From Candidatus Multivoradales bacterium (lineage in GTDB: Bacteria; Acidobacteriota; Thermoanaerobaculia; Multivoradales; JAHEKO01): a stretch of DNA of 64,000 bases. Made by a program: the position numbers and the translations under genes. The notes beneath the pieces are model-generated. The model had not been told where the DNA came from, did not search any database, and saw nothing but the letters and a program-made list of their open reading frames with translations. The stretch is taken from positions 320,001-384,000 of the forward strand of contig CBDCVR010000013.1 of NCBI GenBank assembly GCA_965223155.1. The letters are read 5' to 3'. This document shows, one piece after another, positions 46,223 through 54,820 of this stretch; the stretch's first letter is position 1; each line of letters starts with the position of its first letter.

Positions 46223-47304
46223 CAGCTCTCAGAATGAAGAAAGCAGGCCACTCGCCGGCCGACATCCAGCTCGGCCAAGCCCGGAGCCCGCTGCGAGCAG
46301 GGATCGAAGCGCTCCGGACAGCGCGGATGGAAGCGACATCCGGCGGGCCAGGAGGCCAGGTCTGGAACCTGGCCGGGAATCGCCTGGAGGCGGCCCCTCC
46401 CAAGATCCGGACCGGACTCTGGCGCTCGGCCCAGGCGCGGCAAGGAGGCCAGAAGGCCCCGCGTATAGGGATGAGCGGGCGCCTCGAAGAGATTCTGGAC
46501 GGGAGCCTCCTCGACGATCCGACCGGCATACATGACCAGCACCCGGGAGCAGGTCTCGGCCACCACCGCCAGATCATGGGTAATCAAGAGCACGGCGAGC
46601 CCTAGCCGCGAACGGAGATCTTCGAGGAGCTCCAGGATCTGGGCCTGGACGGTGACGTCGAGGGCGGTCGTGGGCTCGTCCGCGATCAAGAGGTCCGGTT
46701 CCGAGGCGAGAGCGATCGCGATCATCACCCGCTGGCGCTGACCGCCGGAGAGGTTGTGCGGGTACTCCTTGAGGCGCAGGTGCGGTTCGGGCATGGCGAC
46801 CAGTTCGAGGAGCTCGAGGGCCCTTCCTCGCGCCTGTCGCCGGGATACCTGGGCGTGGGCTCGGATGGCCTCGACGATCTGGTTGCCGATGGTAAAGACC
46901 GGATTCAAGGCGGTCATCGGCTCCTGGAACACGAAGCCGATGCGGGCGCCGCGAATCGAGGTCATGGTGCGCTCGGGACGGTCCAGGAGATCCTCGCCGT
47001 CGAGCAGGATCCGGCCGGACCGGATCCGGCCCGGGGGAGGTACCAGCCGCAACAGGGCCAGGGCGGTGACCGTCTTGCCGGAGCCGGACTCCCCCACCAG
47101 GCCCACGAACTCCCGGCGGTCCACCGTGAAACTTGCCTCCTCGACGACATCCACGAGACCGCCGCCGGCCGGGAAGGCGATACGCAGGCTATCGACCGCG
47201 AGAAGCGGCGCCGTGCCGGCCTCGCTGGTTCCGACCGGGGCGCTCTGGGTGCCCCCGGCGGAGGCTACGCCGGCGGGGCGACCGGCCTCGCGATCAGCCG
47301 GCAC
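46222..47304 (-). CDS. Oligopeptide/dipeptide ABC transporter ATPase (OppD/DppD-like)
   Basis: [47 protein letters not shown]. Confidence 0.95.
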
Positions 47305-48772
47305 GATCCATCAGCCAGCGCACGGTCAGGGCGACGCCGTAGCCGGTCGCGCCGAAGGTGCCCTTCTTCCCGCGCCCGACGTAGGCCGGCCCCGCGATGT
47401 CCAGATGAGCCCAGGCGCGATTCTTGACGAAGTTGGCTAGAAAGGCCGCCGCCGTGGAGGCTCCGCCCCAGCGTCCCCCGGTATTTCGCAGATCGGCGTG
47501 GCGGCCCTTCATGGCCCGGCTGAACTCGGGCCACAGCGGCAAGCGCCAGAGGTGTTCGCCGGCGGCGTCGGCCGCGGCCAAGAGCTCGGCGGCGAGATCG
47601 TCGTCGTGCGAGAAGATGCCGGCGCCGTCGGTTCCGAGGGCGACCACGCAGGCTCCCGTAAGGGTCGCGTAGTCCAGAATGACGTCCGCGCCCTCTTCGT
47701 CGGCGAGCGCCAGGGCGTCGGCCAGGAGCATCCGCCCTTCGGCGTCGGTATTGGTGATCTCGACCGTGGTGCCGCTGTAGCAGCGAACCACGTCTCCGGG
47801 GCGGTAGGCAGCCCCGTCGGGCATGTTCTCGGCGAGCGGCAGATAGGCCCGGAACCGGTACGGAAGCTCGAGGAGCGAAGCGGCCTTGGCCACACCCAGG
47901 ACGGTGCAGGCGCCGGTCTTGTCGAATTTCATCTCATCCATGGCCGCGGAGGGTTTGATCGAGATGCCGCCGGTGTCAAAGGTCACGCCCTTCCCCACCA
48001 GCGCCACGCTCGAGCTGCCTTCGCCCCACTCCAGGATGGCCAGACGGGGCGCGTTGCGCGAGCCCTTGCCGACGGCGAGGATGCCGCCCATGCCCTGTTC
48101 GTCGAGCTCTTCCGGCCCCAGAATGCGACAGCTCATACCCGCGGACTCGGCCAGGGCCCGGGCGGACTCGGCCATCCACTCGGGAGTGGCCTCGTTGGGG
48201 GGCGTGTTGGCGAGATCCCGGGTCAGGGCCATGCCCTCGGCGACGGCCATGGCGGTGCTTCGCGCCCGGACGTGGAGCGCCTCGTCGTCCGGATGGCCCA
48301 GGATGCGGACCCGGGCGAGCGGGCGCGGCCGGGTCCGGTCGGGCTTGGAGCGGAACTCCTCGAACCGGTACCGCGAGGCGGCAACGGCCCGAAAGGCGCT
48401 CTCCACCGCCGACTCGCGCCGGCAGACGTCGTGAGACGGGAACTGGACCAGCGCCGAGCGGTATCCGTCCCGGGCCGCGCGGCTGAGAGCCGTTCGGAAG
48501 TGGCGGACCAGCTTGGCGCGATCGAAGGCCTTGGCCGAGCCCAGCCCCTGGACCACCACGGTCGGTGTGCCCGGAGCCGAGGTGCGCGACTCGGTTCGCT
48601 GTCCCAGCCGGCCCGAGAAGCCCTTGCGCTCGGCCAGCCGGATCGCGGCCCGGCCGATCGCCTTGGGCAGACCGGCGACATTCGGCGCCTTCCGCTCGAA
48701 ACAGCCTACGACGTAGACGTCGGCCTTGGTGTCGTTGGGCTTGGCGATTTGGATCTTGGTTACCTTGGACAT
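47294..48772 (-). CDS. pepA: Leucyl aminopeptidase (M17)
   Basis: VGKGVTFDTGG, MKFDK, NTDAEGRMLLAD, ATLTGA, WAHLDIAG. Confidence 0.96.
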   Translation of the reverse strand: MSKVTKIQIAKPNDTKADVYVVGCFERKAPNVAGLPKAIGRAAIRLAERKGFSGRLGQRTESRTSAPGTPTVVVQGLGSAKAFDRAKLVRHFRTALSRAARDGYRSALVQFPSHDVCRRESAVESAFRAVAASRYRFEEFRSKPDRTRPRPLARVRILGHPDDEALHVRARSTAMAVAEGMALTRDLANTPPNEATPEWMAESARALAESAGMSCRILGPEELDEQGMGGILAVGKGSRNAPRLAILEWGEGSSSVALVGKGVTFDTGGISIKPSAAMDEMKFDKTGACTVLGVAKAASLLELPYRFRAYLPLAENMPDGAAYRPGDVVRCYSGTTVEITNTDAEGRMLLADALALADEEGADVILDYATLTGACVVALGTDGAGIFSHDDDLAAELLAAADAAGEHLWRLPLWPEFSRAMKGRHADLRNTGGRWGGASTAAAFLANFVKNRAWAHLDIAGPAYVGRGKKGTFGATGYGVALTVRWLMDRAG

Positions 48773-49025
48773 CGAAGGGATCTCCTATTGGGTGCTCTGG
48801 CTGAAGGCCTCCTGGCGATCCATCGCGGACGGTCCCGGCCGCTCGTCAACGCCGCAATACCGAGGCGCGAAACCGGCCCGTCGTGAGGTCGATCGCCGGG
48901 CGCAGTCTAGCAGCCGCACAGGCCAGGTTCCTCGGTGTCGCAGCCGTCAGGTCGAGCCCCGGGGCGCCGTTTCGGCAGCGAGCGTTATAGAGTCCGGTGG
49001 GCGCCCCAACCGTCCCCCCTCAGCC

Positions 49026-51098
49026 ATGTACACGAAGGAGCTCGACCGGCTGTTCCTGGGCCACCGGACATTTCTGTCCGCCGGTACCGAGGACTTCGGC
49101 CTGGTGATCGGAGTCCAGGACCGGCGGCTGCCGTTGCCGCTCAGGATCTTCCTGGATGACGAGGAAGCCACGCCGGTACGCGGCTTTCCGGTGCTCCACA
49201 ACGCCAAGACCGTGCTGCTCCGCTCCGGCTTCGAGCGCTTTGTCGCCACCATGATCGATTACGAGGCGGCGCGGGCGCAGGGCGCCCCGCTAGGCTCCGG
49301 CAGTGCCACCGCGGGCTGGAGCGAGTACCGCGATGAGCTGCGGCTGGCTCTTTCGAACGCCGTCCGATCCAGTTTCGGGCGTGGGTACCCCAGCATCTTC
49401 TGGCTTTACCACTCGATTGTGGTCTCCCGGGGCATGAAGGAGATTCCCCGGCGGCTCCTCCAGTCCCATCCGGCGATCGGCAAGACCCAGGGCCCGGCGA
49501 TCAAGTACCGGGTCTTCCAGCGCTATCTCGATCTGGTGCTGAACGAGACCTACGACATCGTCAACCAGGTGGCCGTCGATCTGGAAGAGCCTGAAGAAGA
49601 GCTCTTCCCCAACGTCCTCGAGCGCATGCGCGACAACGTGCTGATCCTCACCGAGGACCACATCAGCCCCGATCTGCGCGAGCTGGACACTTACTTCAGC
49701 GGCTATCTCAATGCCGACGGATTGGACTTTCGGAAGCGCTTTTCACGGCTCACCGAGTGGCACTTGCGGGCGCTCGAAAAGGATCCGGATCTTCGCGGCA
49801 TGGTGCGCAGCTTCCTCGGCATCGACGAGTTCGCCAACCCCTGGACTCTGCTCATCCGTCCGGGCTACGTCAAATTCCTGTCAACCCGGCCCAGGTACAC
49901 CGCCGACAAGCTGCTGCGTCCGCGAGATCTGGAGCTTTGGGACCACCTGCTCGAGCGCTTGAAGGAGTTCGAGATCCTGGCGGGCCTGCGCCGCTACGTG
50001 GTTCCGGTCAGCACCCGCGGTCACGAGCTGACGGCCCCTGCCGCGACCCTGCGCAGTCGGACGGCGGGCTCGCGAGAGGTGACCCTGTCGGGGACCACCC
50101 GGCCGATGGATTTCGCCTCCTCCTGGGTTGTGGACCCGCTGGTCCATCGTTTCGGTCTCATCTACGACATCACCGATTTTTCGTTCGTGGTCTCGGTGCT
50201 GCGCCGATCCGGCTCGGCCGACCAGGATGCCTCCTTCCGGCGCATCTACAGCTTCCAGCGCCAGATCGACAAGCTCGCCAGCAGCCGCCGGCTAAAGCTC
50301 GAAAAGTACCTGGGGGACGGGGCCTTCTATTCTGGCCGGCATCCCACCCTGCTGGTAGGCGCGGCGCTGCGTCTTCAGCGCTTCTACAAGGAAGTGCTGG
50401 ACGAAGACTTCCCCTTCGACCGGGGCCTGCGCATCGCCCTCAACCACGGTCCGTACCGGCTGCTGCCCATCCAGGGCGCGGGCCGGCGCCGCCAGTACGA
50501 GTTCTTCGGTCACGGCATCGTCGAGCTGAGCCGCCTGGTGAGCGGCAAGACCACCCACGAGATCGACGAGATGAAGGCGCTGCTGGTGCAGAACGGATAC
50601 CCCGCCCGCGAGGTGGACCGCTTCTTCGCTCCGGTGATGCGCAAGACGGGCGCGACCCTGACGCCGTCGGCCCAGCGCAGCGACTTCCGGGCCTTCATCA
50701 ACGCCTCCGGCGAGCTCATCAACGAAGGCATCGTGATGACCGAGGCTTTTGTGACCGAGATCGCCGCCAAGGCGGAGAGCGGTCTTCTCGGAATCCTCGG
50801 CGTCGCTCGCAGCGTCGAGGCCGAGTATCTGGTGTGCGAGGTGGAAGATCCCCAAGGGGCTCTGCGCTTCGGCTTGAGGCGGTTGGGCAAGGCCCGGCTG
50901 AAGGGCCTCGGAGACGTGGTCGTCTTCGAGGTCCGCGACGCAACCGACTTTGCCGGTACCGACCTCCAGGCTCCACCTGAGGCCGGTCTTCTCGATACAC
51001 TCGCGCGCCTGTACGCCGACGCCGCCCGCGGCGCGGCCTCTAGCAACCAGCCCGGACCCGGTTCCGGTCCAGAATCCGAGGAGATCTCCGTACGATGA
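49026..51098 (+). CDS. 690-aa protein with a divergent C-terminal class III nucleotidyl-cyclase-like domain
   Basis: Ordered motifs LIYDITDFS, EKYLGDG, LRIALNHG, YEFFGHGIVELSRL, GIVMTE, LKGLG..VVFEV; stop overlaps the purC ATG. Confidence 0.7.
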   Translation: MYTKELDRLFLGHRTFLSAGTEDFGLVIGVQDRRLPLPLRIFLDDEEATPVRGFPVLHNAKTVLLRSGFERFVATMIDYEAARAQGAPLGSGSATAGWSEYRDELRLALSNAVRSSFGRGYPSIFWLYHSIVVSRGMKEIPRRLLQSHPAIGKTQGPAIKYRVFQRYLDLVLNETYDIVNQVAVDLEEPEEELFPNVLERMRDNVLILTEDHISPDLRELDTYFSGYLNADGLDFRKRFSRLTEWHLRALEKDPDLRGMVRSFLGIDEFANPWTLLIRPGYVKFLSTRPRYTADKLLRPRDLELWDHLLERLKEFEILAGLRRYVVPVSTRGHELTAPAATLRSRTAGSREVTLSGTTRPMDFASSWVVDPLVHRFGLIYDITDFSFVVSVLRRSGSADQDASFRRIYSFQRQIDKLASSRRLKLEKYLGDGAFYSGRHPTLLVGAALRLQRFYKEVLDEDFPFDRGLRIALNHGPYRLLPIQGAGRRRQYEFFGHGIVELSRLVSGKTTHEIDEMKALLVQNGYPAREVDRFFAPVMRKTGATLTPSAQRSDFRAFINASGELINEGIVMTEAFVTEIAAKAESGLLGILGVARSVEAEYLVCEVEDPQGALRFGLRRLGKARLKGLGDVVVFEVRDATDFAGTDLQAPPEAGLLDTLARLYADAARGAASSNQPGPGSGPESEEISVR

Positions 51099-51985
51099 GC
51101 GCCGTCTCGAGCACTGCTCTGCCCGGCCTGCCCGCTCCCAAGCGCGGCAAGGTCCGCGACATCTACGACCTGGGCGACACCCTGCTTCTGGTCGCGTGCG
51201 ACCGCATCTCCGCCTACGATCATGTCTTGAGCCCGGCCATCCCGGGTAAGGGCAAGATCTTGAACCAGCTCAGCAACTTCTGGTTCGAGCGCCTGAGGGA
51301 GACCGTGCCGAACCATCTCCTGGCGACGGAGTGGTCCGACTTCCCCGGCGAGCTCGCGGCCCACCGCGAGGTGCTCGAGGACCGCGCCGTGGTCGTGCGC
51401 AAGGCCGAAGTGGTTCCCTTCGAATGCGTGGTGCGCGGGTATCTGGCCGGCAGCGGCTTCAAGGAGTACGGCAACTCGGGCTCGGTCTGCGGGGTACCGC
51501 TGCCGGAGGGCTTGGTGCGGGCGGCAAAGCTCCCAGAGCCCATCTTCACTCCGGCCACCAAGGCCGAGACCGGTCACGATGAGAACGTCTCCTTCGAGGT
51601 CATGGCCGGAGCCCTTGGCGACGAGCTCGCCGAAGACCTGCGCTCCAAGTCCCAGGCGATCTTCGCCGCTGGCAGCGAGGTCCTCGAGGCTTGTGGCCTC
51701 ATCCTGGCGGACACCAAGTTCGAGTTCGGCCATGTCGGCGAGGAGATCGTCCTGATCGATGAAGTGCTGACACCCGACTCGTCGCGCTTCTGGGAAGGTG
51801 TCGAGTGGCAGCCCGGCACCGAGCCGGTCTCGTTCGACAAGCAGTTCGTGCGCAACTGGCTGGACAAGAGCGGTTGGGACCACGAGTCGCCGCCGCCCGA
51901 GCTCCCGGACGAGATCGTCCAGGGCACGCTCGATCGCTACGTCGCCGCCTTCCGGCGAGTGACCGGCCGCGATCCCGTGCTGTAG
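51095..51985 (+). CDS. purC: Phosphoribosylaminoimidazole-succinocarboxamide (SAICAR) synthase
   Basis: GKVRDIY, DRISAYD, ECVVRGYLAGS, FTPATKA, ADTKFEFG, DEVLTPDSSRFW, SFDKQFVR. Confidence 0.99.
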   Translation: MSAVSSTALPGLPAPKRGKVRDIYDLGDTLLLVACDRISAYDHVLSPAIPGKGKILNQLSNFWFERLRETVPNHLLATEWSDFPGELAAHREVLEDRAVVVRKAEVVPFECVVRGYLAGSGFKEYGNSGSVCGVPLPEGLVRAAKLPEPIFTPATKAETGHDENVSFEVMAGALGDELAEDLRSKSQAIFAAGSEVLEACGLILADTKFEFGHVGEEIVLIDEVLTPDSSRFWEGVEWQPGTEPVSFDKQFVRNWLDKSGWDHESPPPELPDEIVQGTLDRYVAAFRRVTGRDPVL

Positions 51986-52101
51986 CCTGACGGTCTTCTC
52001 CTCCCATCGTTACCGCGAGGCCGCATCTTGCTGAGATCTACTGGGGTGTCTTGGCGCTCTGCTCCTCAACGTAACGACAGTTGCGCCCGCGGTCCTCGCT
52101 C

Positions 52102-52246
52102 CAGGCTCGGCCGGATTGTCGAGATGCGGTTCTTCGCGGGTCTCTCGGTCGAGGAGACGGCGAGGCTCCTGGACGCCTCACCGAGCAACGTCGAGCACGA
52201 CTAGCGCAAGCCGCGTGCCTTTCTCATCATCTACCGGGAGCTGTGA
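52102..52246 (+). pseudogene. Region-4 remnant of an ECF sigma factor (TIGR02999-like)
   Basis: RIVEMRFFAGLSVEETARLLDASPSNVEHD*RKPRAFLIIYREL*; in-frame TAG at 52202 where Trp is expected; no region 2. Confidence 0.75.
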
Positions 52247-52390
52247 GTCTTTGGCGAGAATCCAGAGGGTCGTTGGTGAATCTGAACGCTCAGGGTCTCG
52301 CCATTTCGTAATGCTAGACTTTTTCAGACCTCGTTTCCGTTGCTCGAACAGCACGCCGGCCTCGAAGCCGGCTCTCGGCTCTCGGCTCTG

Positions 52391-54820
52391 ATGATCGGTT
52401 CGACCGTCTCTCATTACAAGATCCTCGCCAAGCTCGGAGGCGGCGGCATGGGGGTGGTCTACGAGGCCGAAGACCAGGTGCTCGGCCGCAAGGTGGCGCT
52501 CAAGTTTCTGCCCGACGAGCTGGCCGAGGACACGGACGCTCTGGCGCGGTTCGAGCGCGAGGCGCGAGCGGCCTCGGCGCTCAACCATCCCCACATCTGC
52601 GTCATCCATGCCATGGGAGAGGAGGACGGCCGGTCTTTTATCGTCATGGAGCTGATGGAGGGGCAGACCCTCAAATACCTGTCCGCGGGTGAGCCCATGG
52701 AGATCGGCCGGCTGGTACGGATCGGCGCCCAGGTGGCGGATGCCCTCGAAGCCGCCCACGGCGCGGGGGTCATCCACCGGGACATCAAGCCGGCCAACCT
52801 TTTTGTCACTTCCCGCGGTGACGCCAAGATGCTGGATTTCGGCCTCGCCAAGGTCAGCGAAGAGCGGGCGCGCCGCGAGTCGCGGGAGGCCGAGACCGAC
52901 CTCGAGACCATGCTGGCACCGGATGACTTGACCGCCCCCGGAACGTCGATGGGCACGATCGGCTACATGTCGCCCGAGCAGGTGCGGGGCGAGGAGATCG
53001 ATCACCGAACCGATCTCTTCTCGCTGGGTGTGGTGCTCTACGAGCTCGGCACCGGCAAGCCGCCGTTTGCCGGCACGACCTCCGGGGTGGTCTTCGATCA
53101 GATCCTCAACAAGGCCCCGATCCCGGCCGGGCGCATCAACCCCGAGCTGCCCGACGAGCTCGGGCACATCCTCGACAAGGCTCTGGAGAAGGACAAGTCA
53201 CTCCGCTACCAGAGCGCCTCCGAGCTCAAGGCGGACCTGCTGCGCCTCGAACGGGACTCGACCGTGGCGATCACGGCGCCGGTCACCGTGGCGGCCGAGC
53301 CGTCGCGCGCGCCCTCGCGCAAGGGCCTCTGGATAGCTCTCGGCGCGGCAGCGTTGGCCGCGGTCCTGGCGGGGGGGCTGTTTTTGGGTAGGAAGACCGA
53401 CCCGGCCGGCGGAACCAGAGATCAGCCGGCAGTTGCCGCACCCTCGCCGGCTTATAGCGATTCCGCGTCTATCGCGGTGTTGCCCTTTGTCGACATGAGC
53501 CCGGCCAAGGACCAGGAGTACTTTGCCGACGGCCTCACCGAGGAGTTGTTGAACGTCCTGGTTCAGATTCGCGACCTCAAGGTAGCCGGACGGACGTCGT
53601 CGTTTCACTACAAGGGGCGCACCGAGGATCTGCGGGTGATCGGTGAGACGCTGGGCGTGGCGTCGATCCTCGAGGGGAGCGTGCGCAAGGCCGGCGACCG
53701 GATTCGCATCACCGCCCAGCTCATCAATGCGGCTGATGGTTTCCACCTCTGGTCCGAGAGCTACGATCGGACGCTCGACGACATCTTTGCGGTCCAGGAC
53801 GACATCGCCGCCTCGGTGGCGGAGGCGCTCGAGGTCGAGCTGTTCGGCGGTGGGACGAGCGAGTCCGAAAAGAGCACCCCGAGCGCCGAGGTCCACAACC
53901 TCGTTCTGCAGAGCGTGCACTTCGCAAGGCGCTTTACCGAGCCCAGCCTGGCCAAGGCGGCCGAGTACTTGGAAGAAGCACTGGCGCTCGACTCCGAACA
54001 CGCCCCGGCTTGGGCCGCTCTGGCGAGCGTTCGGCATCTCCAGGCCGGCCAGGCATACATCCCCATGGGCGAAGGCGTCCGGCTGGCGCGGCAAGCGGCC
54101 ACCCGCGCGGTCGAGCTGGACCCGGACCTGGCCGAGGGCTGGCTCGCTCTGGGCGAGCTCAAGACGAGTTTTGACTGGGATTGGGCCGGCGCCGAGTCGG
54201 CGTTTGACCGAGCCCGCTCGCTGGCCCCCGGCAACGCGGATGTTCTCACCGGAGCCGCCAGTCTTCTCGCGAAGCTGGGCCGTCTCGAGGAAGCGATCGA
54301 GATCGGCCGGCGAGCGGTCGAGCTCGACCCGCTCAACGGCGGACCCCGCTTCCGGCTGGCGGCGATCTTGAGCGGCGCGCGGCGCTGGGAGGGAGCGGAA
54401 ACCCAGTACCGAAAGCTCCTGGAGCTGAACCCGGACGTCCCGGTTGTTCACACCAGCCTGGCCGCCATCGAGCTGGGGCGGTCGCGTCCCGAGGCGGCGC
54501 TCGAGGAAGTCGAGCAGGAGACCTCGCCGGTATGGCGAACGATCGGGTTGGCGTTTGTCTACCATGACTTGGGGCGCTCGGAAGAGGCCGATACGGCGTT
54601 GGAGCAAATCAAGGAAGAGCACGGAGATAACGCGGCGTTTCAGATCGCGGCGGTCCACGCATACCGCAACGAGCCCGACGCGGCCTTCGAGTGGCTCGAG
54701 CGCGGGTACGTGCACCGCGACCCCGGGGTGGCGTCGGTCAAAACGGCTCCGGCTCTCGCGAGCCTCCACGACGATCCCCGCTGGGCGGCTTTTCTCCGCA
54801 AGATGGGTCTGCCGGAGTAA
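52391..54820 (+). CDS. Hanks-type Ser/Thr kinase with TM, TolB-N-like and TPR domains
   Basis: [38 protein letters not shown]; [11 protein letters not shown]...[11 protein letters not shown]; TPR helices. Confidence 0.95.

Follow-up and report, generated by a model that had tools for sequence, protein, structure and literature searches.

Class III nucleotidyl cyclases and related systems

In guanylyl cyclases a Glu and a Cys form the base-specifying pair, and the Pycsar enzyme PycC is a cyclase-fold enzyme with altered base-contacting residues that tends to escape sequence models. Here we describe a gene, referred to as X, that directly precedes purC in a 64,000-nucleotide (nt) stretch of DNA (the window; contig CBDCVR010000013.1, positions 320,001 to 384,000, GenBank assembly GCA_965223155.1) from a Candidatus Multivoradales bacterium of the acidobacterial class Thermoanaerobaculia, and compare its product, P0001, with these enzymes. 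In the available text of PMC7384201, class III cyclases dimerize head-to-tail and bear their sites at the dimer interface; ATP specificity comes mainly from a Lys together with an Asp or Thr touching adenine N1 and N6, an Arg stabilizes the transition state and a Lys holds the γ-phosphate. The same source implicates the conserved Asn and Ser of helix α4 in ribose orientation, and reports several substrate complexes in which the Ser forms a hydrogen bond to the ribose and the Asn does not.

The structures nearest to P0001 are those of class III adenylyl/guanylyl cyclases (AC/GC, PF00211), namely Mycobacterium avium Ma1120 (5d0e, 4wp8) and M. tuberculosis Rv1900c (1ybu). P0001 resembles these enzymes in its modelled fold (Z 18.6-19.2, root-mean-square deviation (rmsd) 1.9-2.3 Å, nearly the whole target domain covered) and in having the metal Asp pair, the base Lys, the β4 Arg, the α4 Ser and Arg, and the Lys-Gly of the last hairpin in register. 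Unlike them, it is missed by the PF00211 model, shares 10-22 % identity with the listed chains, carries Glu in place of the base Asp/Thr and a hydrophobic residue followed by an invariant Glu in place of the Asn, and contains a 55-residue helical insertion with a Gly-Lys after α4 as well as a 345-residue N-terminal domain without a solved counterpart. It also differs from PycC, since the PADLOC defence models give GajA as the best match at E 0.051 only, the neighbours of X are the housekeeping genes pepA and purC with no effector gene, and X is vertically conserved in one class and not patchy in its distribution. A canonical class III cyclase is encoded in the same genome (contig C14, 1187-amino-acid (aa) frame) and likewise has a cyclase homology domain, one of the 23 used below as references; unlike P0001 it matches PF00211 (E 2.2e-20), and the two are not close paralogues.

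Judged from sequence comparisons and structure models, the chances are about even that X, leading a unit shared with purC, encodes an active, highly divergent class III cyclase in which a family-specific active-site signature is combined with a regulatory domain whose fold has no match. Because the PF00211 hidden Markov model does not match P0001 and the canonical Asn is replaced, the protein is classed here with the class III cyclase kind and not as a PF00211 member. A first-pass annotation of this DNA, made without database searches, had proposed a novel cyclase or cyclase-fold sensor tied to purine synthesis; the cyclase fold and its residues held up in the present analysis, and the purine tie was not supported. 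The features discussed are collected in Table 1.

Table 1. Features of the X-purC region, with positions in the window, strand and supporting evidence
Feature	Position	Strand	Evidence or remark
Cyclase-fold gene X, 690-aa open reading frame (P0001), of an unannotated Thermoanaerobaculia family	49026..51098	+	Open-frame translation
Predicted class III cyclase homology domain, residues 369-640	50130..50945	+	Foldseek, VIA-align, hhalign, conserved catalytic positions
D381, F385, S386: D, F, T of canonical xLFxDLxGFT			hhalign
K427, D431: K, D of canonical DKFIGD			hhalign
R469: R of canonical RIGIHTG			hhalign
E492: Asp of the canonical base pair			hhalign
G495: canonical Gly			hhalign
V499: canonical Asn			hhalign
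S502: canonical Ser			hhalign
R503: Arg of canonical TVNLAxR			hhalign
Family-specific insertion, residues 506-560, after helix α4	50541..50705	+	Model helices, hhalign gap, conservation
N-terminal domain, mostly helical, residues 1-345	49026..50060	+	AlphaFold2 model, structure searches
purC (SAICAR synthetase), 296 aa	51095..51985	+	NCBIfam NF010568, E 5.8e-118; Pfam PF01259 (SAICAR_synt), E 2e-72
AT-rich -10-like element GTTATAGA, candidate promoter of the X-purC pair	48984..48991	+	42 nt before the start codon
AGTCTAGCAG element, reverse complement resembling an extended -10 for the divergent pepA	48904..48913	-	Recurrence upstream of X

Fold of the C-terminal half

The AlphaFold2 model of P0001, built from a 42-sequence alignment, has a predicted local distance difference test (pLDDT) score of 84.4 and a predicted template modelling (pTM) score of 0.74. 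Foldseek comparison of the model with the PDB gives 150 matches at E≤0.001, and the top ranks among the matches listed are all class III AC/GC (E 6.6e-7 to 1.1e-5, 10-16 % identity), with target TM scores of 0.59-0.76 for single-domain targets. VIA-align, run on the best 997 chains from Foldseek, places Ma1120 first (5d0e_B; Z 19.2, rmsd 1.9 Å, 162 of 164 target residues aligned), gives Z 19.0 for Rv1900c, and reaches Z≥8 with 251 of the 997 chains over the model range 370-640. From this 270-residue span, 162-186 residues align to cyclase domains. The class III palm fold, which the first-pass annotation had singled out as the feature to look for in a structure model, is thus recovered by both comparisons. 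As for GGDEF domains, no Pfam family matches at E≤10 and the best 50 structural rows are all class III AC/GC, the latter being a weak test for the fold itself.

Residues of the predicted active site

Positions in P0001 were assigned by hhalign against a reference set of 23 canonical PF00211 domains, drawn from the genome of the window and from 15 genomes related to it (G005 left out). The whole C-terminal half (42-sequence profile) aligns at 80.8 % (E 1.3e-5), with EKYLGDG and RIALNHG as the confident core. Residues 365-512 (45-sequence profile) align at 96.9 % (E 1.5e-10) over 122 columns, from D381 to R503; the final part (E492 to R503) is ungapped but has low posterior confidence. The motif positions picked out in the first-pass annotation are all correct, namely Y380-D381 (YDITDFS), K427 and D431 (EKYLGDG), R469 and N473 (LRIALNHG), E492, V499 and R503 in YEFFGHGIVELSRL, and K626-G627 in LKGLG.

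The conservation of these residues was followed in 45 members: P0001 itself, 13 distant genes taken from the class's other families, and 31 representatives reaching as low as ~30 % identity. Twelve residues are identical in all 45 (D381, F385, K427, D431, R469, G495, E500, R503, G507, K508, K626 and G627), and N473 is retained in 44. D381 and D431 fall on both canonical metal Asp, in agreement with their designation as metal ligands in the first-pass annotation. The two phosphate ligands, R469 and K626, are likewise present throughout, K626 by a weak alignment, while of the α4 residues Arg503 is invariant, Ser502 is present and the Asn is replaced. The base-contacting position 492 is Glu in 43 members and Asp in two, so that neither the adenylyl pair of Lys with Asp/Thr nor the guanylyl pair of Glu with Cys is found in 43 of the 45. 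The Asn position 499 is always hydrophobic (Val in 40, Ile in three, Ala and Leu in one each) and is always followed by Glu500. The deviations already pointed out from the sequence (Glu492, Val for Asn at 499, Arg503 kept) are therefore characters of the family, borne out by the profile alignment and by the 45-member comparison. By region, the majority fraction is highest in the first half of the cyclase domain (0.78), followed by the N-terminal helices (0.62) and the tail (0.26). Since the motifs are invariant across members as distant as ~30 % identity, the alignment indicates that their occurrence in P0001 is not due to chance.

Two family features have no counterpart in the canonical profile, Glu500 (nt 50523-50525) and the Gly-Lys at 507-508 (nt 50544-50549), the latter often followed by Ser or Thr.

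The invariance of the metal Asp, both Arg and both Lys over deep divergence is as catalysis predicts, and argues against a dead sensor. A pseudo-cyclase, in which the domain is a catalytically dead sensor that binds nucleotides, would account for the loss of the canonical Asn and for the missing PF00211 match; we regard it as very improbable, because ligands of this kind, fixed in 45 of 45 members, are expected for catalysis and unneeded for binding alone.

Proposed mechanism

As an active class III cyclase, the product of X would be a soluble two-domain enzyme. Its residues ~369-640 would make up a nucleotidyl-cyclase homology domain of class III, strongly diverged yet able to catalyse, and two such chains would be expected to dimerize head-to-tail as in the solved structures of this class. 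D381, D431 and R469 of one chain are predicted to hold two metal ions and the triphosphate, and the partner chain would complete the site with K427 and E492 for the base, S502 and R503 for the ribose and the transition state, and K626 for the γ-phosphate. A purine nucleoside triphosphate (NTP), most likely ATP, would be converted to the 3',5'-cyclic nucleoside monophosphate and pyrophosphate. Particular to the family are the Glu in place of the base Asp, the hydrophobic residue in place of the ribose-orienting Asn, the invariant Glu next to it, and the 55-residue helical insertion that opens with Gly-Lys. The helical 345 residues at the N-terminus would serve as a regulatory or sensor module, and X, lying between a conserved promoter-like element and purC, would be transcribed together with it. 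Measured against the description in the available text of PMC7384201, the Lys/Glu pair most resembles that for adenine, while the fixed Glu leaves room for a different base.

Several observations weigh against this reading. The PF00211 model gives no match to P0001 at E≤10, and a PF00211 profile search across the whole genome picks up the C14 gene only, not X. None of the 45 members has the canonical Asn, so the chemistry may be altered, and the base position of P0001 carries Glu where adenylyl cyclases have Asp/Thr (PMC7384201, available text). The correspondence of K626-G627 with the canonical LKG is a weak alignment on its own (35.8 %, E 3.8e-4). With regard to distribution, X was not found in 10 of the 28 genomes of the class within a phylum sample of 301 genomes (completeness ≥80 %), and adjacency to purC is lost in 10 of the 13 distant loci.

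In one alternative, the domain would use NTPs without cyclizing them, for example transferring the nucleotidyl group to another acceptor or hydrolysing the NTP. The metal, phosphate and base ligands are retained and the ribose-orienting Asn is gone, an acidic E500 and a Gly-Lys loop are added, and the 55-residue insertion with its invariant G507-K508 adjoins the catalytic helix, all of which would suit such an activity. On the other side, the wider fold class is not known to hold chemistry other than cyclization, and all members keep the transition-state Arg. The available text of PMC7384201 presents the nucleotidyl cyclases of class III as cyclases and nothing else, and S502 is present, a Ser at this position contacting the ribose hydroxyls in several of the complexes reported there. 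Because in several complexes it is the Ser and not the Asn that makes this contact, loss of the Asn alone does not predict inactivity. We consider a non-cyclizing enzyme unlikely. If the cyclase is active, the Val/Glu replacing the canonical Asn would put current ideas on ribose positioning to the test.

Insertion and N-terminal domain

The insertion after the SRL helix, put at roughly 55-60 residues in the first-pass annotation, is real and is seen in the AlphaFold model as three extra helices (508-522, 527-542 and 547-551) between helix 496-505 and the strands that follow. It remains unaligned when hhalign is extended along the canonical profile. It begins with G507-K508 in all 45 members, and L520, G524, Y525, V530, F533 and P536 are invariant in the 42-sequence core alignment.

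Residues 1-345, modelled alone from 31 sequences, give a model (pLDDT 86.1, pTM 0.85) with a small β element followed by long helices. Foldseek of this model against the PDB returns no match at E≤0.001 (best E 0.33), and VIA-align against 48,161 chains, a comparison independent of Foldseek, returns none at Z≥8; the best Z of 7.8 is to generic helical bundles, within the stated background for helical models. The N-terminal part had been described from the sequence as matching no recognizable domain, and it indeed has no Pfam, NCBIfam or solved-fold match. Residues T49, D169, D203, D211 and H212 are invariant in the core group and vary in distant members. The domain is probably a regulatory or sensor module.

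Gene product and start site

Two starts are possible in the + frame ending at 51098, a TTG at 48726 (790 aa) and an ATG at 49026 (690 aa). The Met of 49026 is the start in nearly all sequences of the 42-homologue alignment, and the 690-aa product is preferred for this reason. The TGA of X (51096-51098) overlaps the ATG of purC at 51095 (ATGA), and both the coordinates and the translation agree with those of the first-pass annotation. Its description of the protein as soluble is consistent with the hydropathy of P0001, in which the highest 19-residue Kyte-Doolittle window is 1.24 and none exceeds 1.6.

Family and distribution

Database searches with P0001 return no Pfam family at E≤10 and no NCBIfam match at E≤1, and the best PDB sequence match reaches no better than E 0.28 (single sequence) or 1.3 (family profile). 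Homologues are nevertheless numerous: 1094 were found at E≤0.001 (90 %-identity cluster representatives; 7999 candidates scored), and the 120 of them listed are 520-720 aa long, every given source name being "hypothetical protein". Clustered at 50 % identity, the relatives found by exhaustive comparison with 1.84 billion representatives number 186, some of them 750-870 aa long and only 30-35 % identical. A whole-protein Atlas search returns Acidobacteriota clusters without names together with one PF00211 cluster at rank 9 (score 0.94). A literature search for this protein family found no publication among the entries listed. The more than 1000 sequence clusters, named "hypothetical protein" where listed, seem to form an unrecognized branch of the cAMP/cGMP cyclase superfamily, and if the enzyme is active, domain-based surveys under-count cyclic-nucleotide signalling in Thermoanaerobaculia.

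In the phylum sample, relatives of X occur in 18 of the 28 genomes of the class (the window's genome counted) and in one of the 273 outside it. Three families of the class are without any match (0/5, 0/2 with G044 included, and 0/3). X is single copy in its own genome. Among 371 candidate stretches, taken from one genome per species, 244 code for a relative; 80 were kept as close loci, almost all of them labelled Thermoanaerobaculia or Acidobacteriota.

The sole match outside the class, in genome G181, has the pepA/opp/TolC block upstream, no purC within ~4.7 kb downstream and a very long tree branch; it may reflect a misplaced genome or a gene transfer. Genome G060 carries two paralogues (contigs C5 and C110; loci L111 and L122) of 778 and 838 aa, neither adjoining purC, and a PilZ-domain gene lies near the second. 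As regards fused forms, no relative longer than 1208 aa was found, in a search that is weak evidence on this point, and as regards split forms, all 106 shorter matches appear to be pieces of members of this family, most of them on 1-4 kb contigs. The only informative source name among ~226 listed matches is JGI's "class 3 adenylate cyclase" for P0324, a family fragment of 185 aa.

Linkage of X and purC

Among the close loci, 77 have at least 600 nt beyond the X stop, and in 74 of these purC follows on the same strand within 400 nt, a count that overstates independence because the 80 loci are kin. The estimated gap has a median of 34 nt, with several overlaps; the three exceptions (L003, L011 and L066) have convergent genes behind X. 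A TolC-like gene, oppF, oppD and the divergent pepA make up an upstream block present in the majority of the 80. X-purC is also retained in seven loci where pepA is not matched and a kinase-like match appears close to the locus start (~5 kb upstream) instead. The first-pass annotation had named three outcomes that would speak against it, namely lack of the palm fold, non-conservation of the two Asp and non-conservation of the purC adjacency; with the fold present, both Asp invariant and the adjacency kept in 74 of 77 close loci, none of the three was seen.

In the distant members purC follows in three of 13 loci (L115, L120 and L123), and the neighbours at other loci include a ChlI/ComM-like ATPase, or an XPD/DinG-like helicase accompanied by a divergent DnaC/IstB-like ATPase. 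In the unrooted family trees, two of the three deep clades contain members adjacent to purC. The distribution of the adjacency needs at least four changes on well-supported branches in a quick IQ-TREE tree (33 rows, with 20 of the 80 close loci, selected by us) and six in a FastTree tree (93 rows, one close locus dropped for its short frame). The simplest reading is repeated loss of an old X-purC adjacency, and as far as gene order and trees indicate, this order is long-lived yet repeatedly lost.

Genomes lacking X give a complementary view. purC is kept in five of the five checked (G044 among them), and X is thus dispensable for purC. In two of them (G113 and G291) pepA and purC are divergent and directly adjacent; in G248 an outer-membrane efflux gene lies directly upstream of purC, and in G019 such a gene is separated from purC by a sulfate-permease gene. 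These four genomes have the X neighbourhood minus X.

It is an evenly balanced question whether the adjacency reflects no more than inherited gene order at a shared promoter, without functional coupling, an explanation that is independent of the chemistry of the domain. The majority of the 80 loci are syntenic for the TolC/oppDF/pepA block and the X-purC pair behind it, class members lacking X keep the same layout minus X (G113, G291, G248, G019), X occurs without purC behind it in three close loci and 10 of 13 distant ones, and the other pur genes are scattered, with purE, purB and purH elsewhere. Set against this, the X-purC pair survives with differing upstream genes in the seven pepA-less loci with a kinase match, deep branches have it too, joined by an overlap or a short spacer (e.g. 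L120), and the trees demand at least 4-6 separate losses, not one.

Another reading is a cyclase with a non-standard substrate or product, in which the Lys/Glu pair and the loss of the Asn would fit the pocket to another base, such as hypoxanthine, xanthine or the 5-aminoimidazole-4-carboxamide (AICA) ring of ZTP, and the messenger would report the state of the purine pathway; such an enzyme would account for the long-lived pairing with purC. Consistent with this, position 492 (Glu in 43 of 45, Asp the only substitute, in two), the hydrophobic Asn position and the invariant Glu next to it make up a fixed signature rather than drift, and the adjacency extends to two of three deep clades at ~30-37 % identity. 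We nevertheless hold this to be rather unlikely, since a Lys with an acidic residue is the adenine-type pair in the available text of PMC7384201 and Glu may just replace Asp, X relatives lack an adjoining purC in 10 of 13 distant loci, and purC occurs without X in all five X-lacking genomes checked. An Rfam scan of 47000-53000 likewise found no ZTP or purine riboswitch and no RNA family, the sole match having E 0.84. In a more specific version, a cyclic nucleotide other than cAMP/cGMP would be formed from ITP, XTP or ZTP, or the N-terminal domain would be switched by a purine intermediate, so that X-purC reports de novo purine flux; this we think quite improbable.

The tie to de novo purine synthesis put forward in the first-pass annotation is accordingly left unsupported, its basis being gene order, which is lost in most of the distant loci. 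The same applies to AICAR triphosphate as a substrate, on which the change from Asp to Glu is the sole fact that bears; both ideas are speculation. The pairing with purC provides a concrete, testable hypothesis and is not yet evidence of function. A role for X as a missing purine enzyme was also considered and is ruled out by the presence of purE, purH and purB elsewhere in the genome, where purE, purB and purH are canonical; purC itself is single-copy.

In four loci from one family of the class (L111-L114, with the 770-810-aa form), the XPD/DinG-like helicase lies behind the X relative in all four and the divergent DnaC/IstB-like ATPase lies ahead in three; the ATPase is also present in L115 and L123, which keep purC. 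In another family (L116 and L117), a ChlI/ComM-like ATPase of the Mg-chelatase type lies directly upstream on the same strand.

Promoter-like elements

Between pepA and X lie two short elements, AGTCTAGCAG and GTTATAGA, with the appearance of a conserved pair of divergent promoters. Elsewhere the -10-like element occurs as TATGCTAT or TATGTTATA types. The pattern is found in 27 of 38 upstream regions of 150 nt compared with 0 of 185 coding control windows, a contrast that is indicative only, because the pattern was defined post hoc, after viewing the sequences; it is found in one of 74 regions of 200 nt before purC. For the divergent element, TCTAGCAG is the commonest 8-mer in the 38 upstream regions and is present in nine. 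In G113, which lacks X, the same pair of elements (AGTCTAGC and GTTACAAT) stands directly before purC (L131 5060-5160). A generic scan for sigma-70 promoters and terminators gave no sites. X would thus be placed downstream of the purC promoter region and ahead of purC itself, and the two genes are probably co-transcribed as one unit that X leads.

Other features of the window

The G+C content of the window is 61-71 %, and long antisense frames of several hundred codons, including 50510-51883 (-), lie opposite real genes; at this G+C content such frames are expected and are not genes. Downstream of purC, the window encodes an 826-aa Ser/Thr protein kinase with C-terminal tetratricopeptide (TPR) repeats (52340-54820, +). 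This neighbour is not fixed in position, kinase-like matches lying ~5 kb upstream of X in seven related loci and downstream in two.

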